In this document: one piece after another, positions 52,601-55,753 of the stretch
Layout of the letters: every line of letters begins with the position of its first letter
Position numbering within the stretch: the first letter of the stretch is position 1
From: Escherichia coli
GTDB taxonomy: Bacteria; Pseudomonadota; Gammaproteobacteria; Enterobacterales; Enterobacteriaceae
DNA length: 64,000 bases
Assembly: GCF_050920415.1 (NCBI RefSeq)
Contig: NZ_CP169309.1
Reading direction: 5' to 3' (one strand)
Translations under genes and position numbers: made by a program
Notes under the pieces: generated by a model
The model's database searches: none
Told to the model about the DNA's origin: nothing
The model's input: only the letters and a program-made list of their open reading frames with translations

Positions 52601-52927
52601 TTATTTTTGCAACCATTTCCCGTTAATTCCCTGCACATATTCCCCCCGTTTGGCCCGAGCTACAAGCCTTTGTCCGGCAAGCTTCGCGATATCATCTACC
52701 GATACATTATTTTGCTTTGCCAGTTGTTGATAACTCACTTTACGTGCGTCATTAATCTCGGTTACTAATTTCTCTGTTTCAGCATCCGTTTTCAACGCAA
52801 CCAAATAACCGTTAAATGTTTCACCTACCCGCCCCTGGATTCTGGCCTCGTCCAGTGTTAATGCCACTACATTGCTGCTTACCAGTCCAACAAGAAACGC
52901 ACAAAGAAGTAATGTTTTCTTCATCAT
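52601..52927 (-). CDS. ydbL: Periplasmic protein YdbL (DUF1318)
   Basis: ORF 52601..53005 (-); YdbL from internal Met (M)MKKTLLLCAFLVGLVSSNVVA... Confidence 0.85.
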   Translation of the reverse strand: MMKKTLLLCAFLVGLVSSNVVALTLDEARIQGRVGETFNGYLVALKTDAETEKLVTEINDARKVSYQQLAKQNNVSVDDIAKLAGQRLVARAKRGEYVQGINGKWLQK

Positions 52928-52931
52928 CGCC

Positions 52932-53117
52932 TCAGAAAAGATCGCTACGGGTTTTGAGTAAATCTTCGACATCTTTGTCTGCCTTAATGATGATCTCATG
53001 CTCAATTTTAACGTTCATATTGATAGTGATCGGTTCCTTAGGTGCAGCGACTTCAATGCGAGGCGTACAGCCAACCAGCATAAAAGATGACGTCAACGCA
53101 GCCAGTAAAATTTTCAT
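52932..53117 (-). CDS. ynbE: Lipoprotein YnbE (61 aa)
   Basis: ORF 52932..53117 (-); lipobox MKILLAALTSSFMLVGCTP. Confidence 0.85.
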   Translation of the reverse strand: MKILLAALTSSFMLVGCTPRIEVAAPKEPITINMNVKIEHEIIIKADKDVEDLLKTRSDLF

Positions 53118-55753
53118 TGTTTTTCCTCACACCTTTTTCCTTGCGGACAGCCATTTTCCGGCAGACGCGCGTTCTGCTCCAACCATGCCTGGAGATTATC
53201 GCCAAAGCGTAAACTGCGCCACAGCGTAAAAATATTCTCTTCATGATGGTAATTAAGATTTACCGTACCACTTTTACCGTCGACGCGACTGGTACCTGTA
53301 ATATTGGCCTGCATGGTTAACACACCGAGATTATCTAAATTAATTTTTGTCGATGAACGGCTAATTTCCATATAGCGCAACCAGTTAATCGCAGAACCCG
53401 CGGTCATATTGTCTTTCACCACCGCATCTGCGGTGTCTTTATCCAGCCGCAAGGTCATTGGTCCGCTATTTGCCAGCCAGCCGTCTTTAACTATCCATTT
53501 TTCATTGTTCAGCCATAAAGGCAATGCCCCACTAAATGCCCCGGACATGGCGAATTGTTTCGGATTGACGGCGCTAACCAGTTCGCTGGATGAGAGATTA
53601 TTCAGCCGCAACAGCGCCGGGTCATGTTGCGGCATGCGTAATTGTTTCATCAGCACGTTACCGCCTAACACATCGACGCTAACATCGGTCAACAACAATG
53701 GTTCGTCTTCACTCCACGGATAACGCCCTTGCAAGTCAGCCGTAATATTTTTCGCTGTCACCAGATTAATCACTTCGGCAATTCGCAACGTAACGGGGCC
53801 GCGAGTCCCCAGATGCCAGGCTCCATCGGAAAAGCGAAATGGCAAAACAAAATCGACACCGTTAACCTGATTATCTGGCATCCAGGCACTACCGCCTTTC
53901 AACACACCGTGCCCTCCCGCGCGGAATCCTTGTTCAGGCGCAGCAGAAAATGCGACCTGGGCATATAGTTCGCCATCGCGTAAGTTCATCTTCCAGTCGG
54001 GTGGCACCAGCGGCTGGAATACGGTCAGTGATTGTTTAGGCCACCAGGCGTTACCGCGCAGACGAATACCGTCCCAGCGACCATTTACCCGAACCGGGCC
54101 AATCTCACCAGCATGTAAATCGCCTTTAAAGAGGAAATACGTCGGATCGCGTCCATCGACACTAAATTTTAAGGTTGATGGCGGTAACACACTGCCACCA
54201 GTGAACAGTGTTTGCCCGGCGTCCAGTGACAGCGCGCCGCTGAACGAAGGATTCTGCACATCACGTACCCAGACAACGGGCTTGTCGAGAATCAATCGCG
54301 GCTTTTCTACCGTCATTGTCCCGTATTGCAATTTGTCAAAGCCGGTGGAGAGATCGGTCAGCGTAATCGTGCTGTCACGCCACTCACCTTTTCCTGCGAC
54401 ATCCCAACTGGCGTGCATTGGGGTAAAACTGCCCTTGCCCCAGTAGCGCCACTGCCAGCGGCCAGCGTCAGGGAGAAAATCATTCGCCAGTCCATCCATA
54501 TGCAGCACGAAATCGCCCAGTTCATTTTCATGCGCCTGCAAAATGGCCTGCAAACGTCCGTCAACACCACGTTGGGTGACTTTTACACCCGCTAAAGGCC
54601 AGCGGATTTCATCGATGTCCAGCGAATCGATGACTCTTCCCTTCGAACGTAATAACGCGCCTGGCTCAAAGGCCAGCATTGGGTCAGTCAGACTTCCGCT
54701 TAGCTGCGCAGGTAAACGGGCATATAAAATGAGGTCCGCCTGTTTCGCTTCACCGGTCAGTTGCAAAGGCAGCTGGCTGTTATCCATACTTAATTTTCCT
54801 GGGCCAAAATTAAGCACCGCGTTGCCCTTACCCGCTTGCCCCTGGGTCAGCACACTCAGTCGTCCGCTGACCAGAGCATTCTCAAGCCCTGCCTGCCAGT
54901 TGTCGACTTTGACACCCAGTCGTCCACTCAAAGGAAAACCTGCATACGGCCAGCTCCAGCGACCATCGCTTACGGTCAATTGTTGGCGAGTAATTTGCCA
55001 CGGCAGATCGAGCAACGGATCGCCGTTATCCCGTGCCAGCACAATCAATTGCCCGCTATTTTCCTGCCAGTCCAGCTCGGCATCCACCAGTGAAGGCTCC
55101 TGCGGCAAGTTTAACGTCGCAGTAGCATGACCACTTACAGGAAGTCCATCCGGCACTAGCGGCATAGTAAATTCCCCCACCAGTTTAACTGGCGGCTGAT
55201 TTTCAAACGCGACGACATCCAGTTCGCTGACTGTAAGTTGTTGCCCTTTCAGCTGGCCTTGAAATTTAACTTTTTCGCCCTGATAACGCAGTTGCTGGAT
55301 ATCGGAGTTTAATGCGAGAGAGAGTTTTCCCTGCCATTCCTGCCAGGGAGAAAAAATCAGTTTATCGATATTGATCCAGGTGTTAGGCAACATGGCCTGC
55401 CACTGCGCGAGGGTTTTTGGAGCGGCTGGCGATTGCTCCGTCTGCGGCAATTTCGCCAGACAAGCAGAATCAAGTTCTACCGTGCCGACGTTCAATAACC
55501 AGCGGCTGGGATGAGAAAGGCTGGCGTTTGTGATATGTGCAAGCTGACAATCGCCCACCAGATAACGGAGATCGGGAATGATTAAACCTTTACGCGTAAT
55601 GCGTGGGCTTTCATCTAAAGCAATACGTGTCCCGAGCGGTAGCCAGATGCCCGCCAGCGTGGGAACCCACAAGCCGAGCGTCATCAGCAGCGTCAACGGC
55701 ACAAGAATAATCAGTAATAACAGCGCGAGAACGGCTTTATATTTACCCAGCAT
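53114..55753 (-). CDS. ydbH: AsmA-like envelope protein YdbH
   Basis: ORF 53114..55753 (-), 879 aa; N-terminal TM anchor; operon ydbH-ynbE-ydbL with 4-nt overlap. Confidence 0.9.
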   Translation of the reverse strand: MLGKYKAVLALLLLIILVPLTLLMTLGLWVPTLAGIWLPLGTRIALDESPRITRKGLIIPDLRYLVGDCQLAHITNASLSHPSRWLLNVGTVELDSACLAKLPQTEQSPAAPKTLAQWQAMLPNTWINIDKLIFSPWQEWQGKLSLALNSDIQQLRYQGEKVKFQGQLKGQQLTVSELDVVAFENQPPVKLVGEFTMPLVPDGLPVSGHATATLNLPQEPSLVDAELDWQENSGQLIVLARDNGDPLLDLPWQITRQQLTVSDGRWSWPYAGFPLSGRLGVKVDNWQAGLENALVSGRLSVLTQGQAGKGNAVLNFGPGKLSMDNSQLPLQLTGEAKQADLILYARLPAQLSGSLTDPMLAFEPGALLRSKGRVIDSLDIDEIRWPLAGVKVTQRGVDGRLQAILQAHENELGDFVLHMDGLANDFLPDAGRWQWRYWGKGSFTPMHASWDVAGKGEWRDSTITLTDLSTGFDKLQYGTMTVEKPRLILDKPVVWVRDVQNPSFSGALSLDAGQTLFTGGSVLPPSTLKFSVDGRDPTYFLFKGDLHAGEIGPVRVNGRWDGIRLRGNAWWPKQSLTVFQPLVPPDWKMNLRDGELYAQVAFSAAPEQGFRAGGHGVLKGGSAWMPDNQVNGVDFVLPFRFSDGAWHLGTRGPVTLRIAEVINLVTAKNITADLQGRYPWSEDEPLLLTDVSVDVLGGNVLMKQLRMPQHDPALLRLNNLSSSELVSAVNPKQFAMSGAFSGALPLWLNNEKWIVKDGWLANSGPMTLRLDKDTADAVVKDNMTAGSAINWLRYMEISRSSTKINLDNLGVLTMQANITGTSRVDGKSGTVNLNYHHEENIFTLWRSLRFGDNLQAWLEQNARLPENGCPQGKRCEEKQ

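Follow-up and report, generated by a model that had tools for sequence, protein, structure and literature searches.

An Escherichia coli ydbH-ynbE-ydbL operon, very probably encoding one of three redundant lipid bridges

The transport of phospholipids to the outer membrane of Gram-negative bacteria has long been sought, and the ydbH-ynbE-ydbL module counts among the three redundant pathways put forward for it. The question raised here is whether a segment of an Escherichia coli chromosome encodes this module and whether the module is likely to work in the strain that carries it. The segment lies at 52601-55753 on the minus strand of a 64,000-nucleotide window (the whole stretch of DNA that was analyzed) and its two ends coincide with the ydbL stop codon and the ydbH start codon. 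An earlier sequence-only reading had, without giving the strand, named the three genes and suggested a trans-envelope lipid bridge with dedicated partners, which agrees with published experiments in strain K-12 (PMC8593681, PMC11126948, bioRxiv 10.64898/2026.03.16.712125). The segment is very probably the E. coli ydbH-ynbE-ydbL operon, one of three redundant lipid bridges. The operon is ordinary and has already been characterized, and the lipid-bridge idea is published and not new. The broad significance of the module, which is related to the eukaryotic bridge-like lipid-transfer proteins, belongs to the K-12 work, and the window adds only another allele. Added by this analysis are comparative support for a conserved core with an accessory gene and a natural loss of ydbL beside the insertion sequence IS1.

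The gene ydbH (53114-55753, minus strand) encodes a predicted inner-membrane-anchored AsmA-like protein of 879 aa with a repeating beta-groove. It matched Pfam PF11739 with an E-value of 4.8e-289 and 962.6 bits (cut-off 26.3), with residues 14-862 aligned across the full length of the profile (1-892 of 893), and it scored 1393.5 bits against the NCBIfam equivalog NF007971 (cut-off 824). The gene ynbE (52932-53117, minus strand) encodes a putative outer-membrane lipoprotein of 61 aa, which would cap and extend the YdbH groove, and matched PF13617 (E-value 1.8e-16, 60 bits, cut-off 25.8). The gene ydbL (52601-52927, minus strand) encodes a DUF1318 protein predicted to be periplasmic and to modulate YnbE multimerization in the manner of a chaperone, and matched PF07027 (E-value 1.9e-29, 102.5 bits, cut-off 27). 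The signal for the module is far beyond chance. YdbH was identical to K-12 YdbH at 860 of 879 residues (98%) and YnbE at 59 of 61 (97%), the two differences being E52D and E55K. YdbL was 89% identical, with 12 substitutions and loss of the C-terminal residue F108. The family matches and the 89-98% identity to K-12 bear out the gene names given by the sequence-only reading.

The 3,153-base segment was 100% identical to that of E. coli MFDS1022581. Of 5426 complete E. coli genomes, 5417 contained it, annotated as ydbH/ynbE/ydbL. The suggestion that default gene callers would overlook the very small ynbE did not hold, as the Prokaryotic Genome Annotation Pipeline annotates it in the RefSeq records listed, and automatic calls on metagenome and SRA assemblies caught homologues of 62-80 aa at every distant locus examined. 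The ratio of nonsynonymous to synonymous substitution rates (dN/dS) against K-12 was 0.06 for ydbH, 0.11 for ynbE and 0.16, the highest of the three, for ydbL. Values of 0.06-0.16 indicate purifying selection on all three genes. Among antisense open reading frames (ORFs) of 89-195 aa inside the operon none matched Pfam, and they were set aside as spurious. Rfam gave no match within the operon.

In K-12, TamB, YhdP and YdbH form a redundant and jointly essential set, with synthetic lethality of tamB, yhdP and ydbH, and lipid-homeostasis defects were reported alongside the redundancy (Ruiz 2021, PMC8593681). The YdbH gain-of-function changes T303I, G305W, G308C and G456V suppress the defects of a tamB yhdP mutant (PMC8593681). 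YdbH alone was predicted to be too short to cross the periplasm, at ~180 Å compared to ~250 Å (Kumar, Davis and Ruiz 2024, PMC11126948). The same study showed that YdbH in the inner membrane and the lipoprotein YnbE in the outer membrane form a bridge by beta-strand augmentation, with YdbL as a chaperone-like protein. In a tamB yhdP background ynbE is essential, ydbL is not, and extra YdbL is lethal (PMC11126948). The YnbE strand I30-I38 augments the last YdbH strand, as seen in an AlphaFold-Multimer prediction and in p-benzoyl-L-phenylalanine (pBPA) cross-links, double-proline changes in this strand abolish function, and YnbE multimerizes (PMC11126948). The crystal structure of YdbL has been solved, and YdbL binds the C-terminal helix of YnbE by nuclear magnetic resonance (NMR) and native mass spectrometry (De'Ath 2026, bioRxiv 10.64898/2026.03.16.712125). 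The same preprint identified YdbL residues needed for function and reported that free YdbL is degraded by DegP. Thus the redundancy, the YdbH-YnbE contact, YnbE multimerization and the binding of YdbL to the YnbE helix have been established in K-12 by others. The prediction of the ternary complex and the tamB/yhdP synthetic phenotypes, which the sequence-only reading had proposed as checks, were already published in 2021-2024.

Going by 89-98% identity to K-12, the same bridge would operate in the present strain. A single N-terminal helix would anchor YdbH in the inner membrane, and the protein would present a long, hydrophobic-lined beta-sheet groove across most of the periplasm. YnbE, lipid-modified at Cys17, would be targeted to the outer membrane. 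The YnbE segment I30-I38 would fold onto the last YdbH strand, and further YnbE copies would stack on it and close the remaining gap. Phospholipid acyl chains could then slide between the inner and outer membranes. YdbL would be secreted to the periplasm, where it would bind the YnbE C-terminal helix, prevent runaway self-assembly of YnbE and probably dock YnbE onto YdbH. This would be one of three redundant bridges (TamB, YhdP and YdbH), any single one of which would be enough for growth. Close packing of the genes, together with the start/stop overlap, plausibly helps to keep the three proteins in proportion. This proportion is important because too much YdbL is toxic in the absence of the other two bridges.

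The structure of YdbH was predicted with AlphaFold2 from an alignment of 39 homologues of 24-87% identity. The model had a mean predicted local distance difference test score (pLDDT) of 86.4 and a predicted template modelling score (pTM) of 0.67. It comprised a helix at residues 2-36, ~55 beta strands running almost unbroken through residues 42-840, and a C-terminal helix at 841-862. The pLDDT of the strand region was mostly >85. The helix at residues 2-36 (55646-55750, minus strand) is the predicted transmembrane anchor. The Kyte-Doolittle 19-residue maximum was 2.95, at residue 8, marking a very hydrophobic N-terminus. Both results support the N-terminal membrane anchor that had been proposed from the sequence, and the model is consistent with a single helix as the inner-membrane anchor followed by a long, continuous, beta-rich periplasmic domain. 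AsmA-like proteins have been described with this architecture. The sequence-only reading had staked its claim on an AsmA-family fold for YdbH, and the predicted architecture is the one expected. The gain-of-function sites T303, G305, G308 and G456 are unchanged in the present strain.

The fold searches gave little for the assignment of YdbH to the AsmA clan. Foldseek with the YdbH model against the PDB gave LptD chains as top matches, and also ApoB100, with TM-scores of ~0.1, which are uninformative for a long twisted sheet. TamB, though in the PDB (9xdc_B), was absent among the Foldseek matches listed. No PDB sequence was matched by YdbH, whether the search used the single sequence or the profile, and hhalign of the YdbH profile against one TamB sequence gave a probability of 8.5%, which is not significant. 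Sub-threshold matches to DUF748, which belongs to the same Pfam clan as YdbH, were seen in 18 of the 39 homologues (best E-value 2.4e-4). Clan CL0401 has six members in E. coli, one of which is YdbH (PMC8593681). The clan assignment rests on architecture and literature, not on the fold searches.

The strongest alternative is that YdbH-YnbE is mainly a structural tether, an outer-membrane assembly device or a stress-sensing device, and that the lipid-homeostasis phenotypes are indirect. Lipid flux through YdbH is inferred (PMC11126948), and TamB, its paralogue, was first described within an outer-membrane protein assembly module. Against this, the long beta-sheet domain predicted for YdbH appears to be of the same kind as that of the eukaryotic bridge-like lipid-transfer proteins, with a match to BLTP1. 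The redundancy with TamB and YhdP and the accompanying lipid-homeostasis defects (PMC8593681) also speak for a lipid route, and a preprint reports lipids in the TamB groove (bioRxiv 10.1101/2025.03.12.642747). By its 98% identity YdbH would share this redundancy in the present strain. A mainly structural role is therefore considered very unlikely, and a lipid bridge is the preferred reading.

As a lipid bridge the module can be set beside other known systems. TamB-TamA and YhdP resemble YdbH in having an inner-membrane N-terminal helix, a long beta-rich periplasmic domain and a redundant essential function (PMC8593681). YdbH is shorter than TamB and YhdP (PMC11126948), and its link to the outer membrane is a small multimerizing lipoprotein, whereas TamB uses the beta-barrel partner TamA. 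The Lpt bridge (LptC-LptA-LptD) shares with YdbH-YnbE a periplasm-spanning hydrophobic beta groove and strand-to-strand assembly, but it carries lipopolysaccharide, is powered by ATP and adopts a beta-jellyroll fold. At TM-scores of ~0.1 the LptD matches from Foldseek carry no meaning.

YnbE had been read from the sequence as a 61-aa lipoprotein, and its features are those expected of the outer-membrane partner. A lipobox, L14-V-G-C17, was found by regular expression and translation at 53067-53078 (minus strand), with Cys17 as the lipidated residue and Thr18 at position +2. Under the established Lol sorting rule Thr at +2 is no inner-membrane retention signal. The lipoprotein Cys was invariant across seven distant YnbE homologues. 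The amphipathic beta strand I30-I38 (ITINMNVKI; 53004-53030, minus strand), which would augment the last YdbH strand, is identical to that of K-12. Its I-x-I-N-x-x-V core was kept in 7/7 aligned homologues, and the strand persists even where the accompanying YdbH shares no more than 26-40% identity. The pairing of this strand with YdbH is taken from the literature. Both YnbE substitutions, E52D and E55K, fall in the C-terminal helix K45-T56 (52950-52985, minus strand), the segment bound by YdbL in NMR and native mass spectrometry (bioRxiv 10.64898/2026.03.16.712125). The exact YnbE protein was indexed in 1930 blocks of the collection.

Ten distant loci with YdbH homologues of 26-49% identity were compared. 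A YnbE-like lipoprotein gene was present in 10/10 and stood directly after ydbH in 9/10, as ynbE does in the window. The same 4-nt ydbH/ynbE overlap was seen in four of them (L003, L006, L008 and L014). Nine of the loci had sufficient sequence downstream to show a DUF1318 (ydbL) gene, and it followed in just one of these. In Pasteurellaceae-type YnbE homologues without a nearby ydbL, the C-terminal helix was replaced by unrelated tails. In E. coli LP5-1 (NZ_CP101866.1, locus L016, 1704-2401) IS1 lies directly downstream of ynbE at the usual place of ydbL, and ydbH and ynbE are intact. LP5-1 looks like a natural ydbL-null strain. These comparisons suggest that ydbH and ynbE form a conserved core and that ydbL is a lineage-restricted accessory, which fits the published genetics. 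In one Enterobacterales-like locus (L013, GCA_008710095.1, 5255-6589) the YnbE-like gene lies ~1.2 kb from ydbH, with an opposite-strand gene of the Rnf-Nqr family between them. Thus ydbH and ynbE can be paired without being direct neighbors. A possible candidate for an inner-membrane partner, HI_1241, was also seen in Pasteurellaceae, outside this window.

The ydbL allele of the present strain is rare. YdbL matched PDB 28oj_A, 'Probable chaperone-like protein YdbL', over residues 23-108 with an E-value of 1.2e-43. The predicted end of its signal peptide (VVA|LTLDE) matches the first residues of the crystallized mature chain, and the ORF and a cleavable signal peptide are intact as judged from the sequence. 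Together with PF07027, this supports the earlier proposal of a DUF1318 periplasmic protein. Eighteen YdbL positions were compared with K-12, namely 16 mutagenized in the preprint and two taken from the NMR work in it, K70 and A83. Of these 18, 16 are the same (14 of the 16 mutagenized, plus K70 and A83), so the residues required for function or for YnbE binding appear to be largely retained. The two differences are E60A and K86R. YdbL E60A was reported to be functional and K86A to cause a partial loss of function (bioRxiv 10.64898/2026.03.16.712125); K86R is itself a conservative change. A59D, K86R and P93R were absent from nine sampled YdbL sequences of other strains with the same YnbE.

Such divergence, with 12 substitutions, the loss of F108, altered residues at E60 and K86, a dN/dS above those of ydbH and ynbE and a ydbL that is dispensable in K-12 and naturally absent in LP5-1, could mean that the YdbL-YnbE pairing is changed or lost in this strain while YdbH-YnbE still works, but with the ORF, signal peptide and 16 of 18 checked positions unchanged, E60A functional, K86R conservative and a dN/dS of 0.16 that still indicates constraint, an altered or impaired module is extremely unlikely. 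The sequence gives no apparent reason to regard the lipid bridge as inactive in the present strain.

The sequence-only reading had also proposed that the three genes are translationally coupled. The 4-nt ydbH/ynbE overlap that it described was read directly in the sequence as an ATGA stop/start at 53114-53117, minus strand (gaaaaacaATGAaaatt). As sequence geometry, the coupling predicted for ydbH and ynbE is clear. The ynbE-ydbL junction (52925-52936, minus strand) reads TGA, GGCG, ATGATG, and a Shine-Dalgarno-like GAGG motif overlaps the ynbE stop codon. The gap is 4-7 nt, with 4 nt (GGCG) from the ynbE stop to the first ATG. YdbL is 108 aa long from the first ATG and 107 aa from the second (start at 52924), and the K-12 annotation uses the second of the two adjacent ATGs. 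The spacing of GAGG appears to favor the second ATG as the ydbL start. For this second pair of genes coupling is plausible on the same kind of geometry.

Within E. coli the region of ydbL and the ynbE 3′ end (52601-53000) is highly polymorphic. Identity to the present sequence was at least 99% in 4 genomes, 95-99% in 15, 90-95% in 4203, 80-90% in 818 and 60-80% in 364. The YdbL of EDL933 is only 71% identical to that of the present strain. In the sampled haplotypes YnbE Lys55 always occurred with YdbL Ala60 and YnbE Glu55 always with YdbL Glu60, and the pattern held in one distant species too. This could suggest that the ynbE 3′ end and ydbL are a diversification hot spot in which the YnbE helix and the YdbL interface are co-adapted in lineage-specific pairs. 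If true, such pairs would tune the ease with which the YdbH bridge assembles, and the present strain would hold a rare pair with the private changes A59D, K86R and P93R. Because ynbE and ydbL are adjacent, linkage is the simplest explanation of the association, and co-adaptation is regarded as unlikely. The idea that charge changes in YnbE and YdbL compensate each other was weighed too but not taken up, since YdbL keeps the same net charge and linkage of genes ~5 nt apart explains the association.

The K-12 operon (b1381-b1383) has the same gene order, the same ATGA overlap and an identical YnbE strand and lipobox. Its upstream neighbors are also the same as in the window, with divergent ldhA followed by hslJ, ydbJ, ydbK/nifJ, micC and ompN. 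DNA identity to K-12 was 99.3% for ydbJ, 98.6% for both ompN and hslJ, 96.8% for ldhA, 96.2% for ynbE, 95.5% for both ydbH and ydbK, and 90.4% for ydbL. The divergence is mosaic, with ydbK/nifJ (58020-61544) and ydbH (53114-55753) at ~95.5% and hslJ, ydbJ, ompN and uspF at 98.6-99.5%, which suggests recombination patches. The divergent ydbH-ldhA intergenic region (55754-55960, no strand assigned) is presumed from gene layout to hold the operon promoter. A promoter consensus scan of this region found only a weak plus-strand site at 55876-55905 and nothing convincing on the minus strand.

Homology to K-12 ends at the ydbL stop codon (position 52603). K-12 differs from this point in having feaR-feaB-tynA after ydbL. 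These genes are absent here, and in their place are a 646-nt spacer and an autotransporter of the BigA/YdbA type. Promoter and terminator scans and folding downstream of ydbL gave nothing above background. The autotransporter (46417-51954, minus strand) is intact, with 1845 aa and the Pfam domains BigA_N and BigA_beta; ydbA of K-12 is a pseudogene disrupted by an insertion sequence elsewhere on the chromosome. At least 80% of this autotransporter allele was found in only 17/5426 complete E. coli genomes, and most other genomes share only ~1.3 kb of it at 80-87% identity. The junction at 51955-52700, which contains the ydbL 3′ end and the spacer up to the autotransporter start, was likewise found in only 17/5426 genomes.

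Two small RNAs reached the Rfam gathering level in the window, MicC at 61565-61685 (minus strand, 124 bits) and RydC at 27711-27774 (plus strand, 90 bits). Both are ordinary E. coli features.

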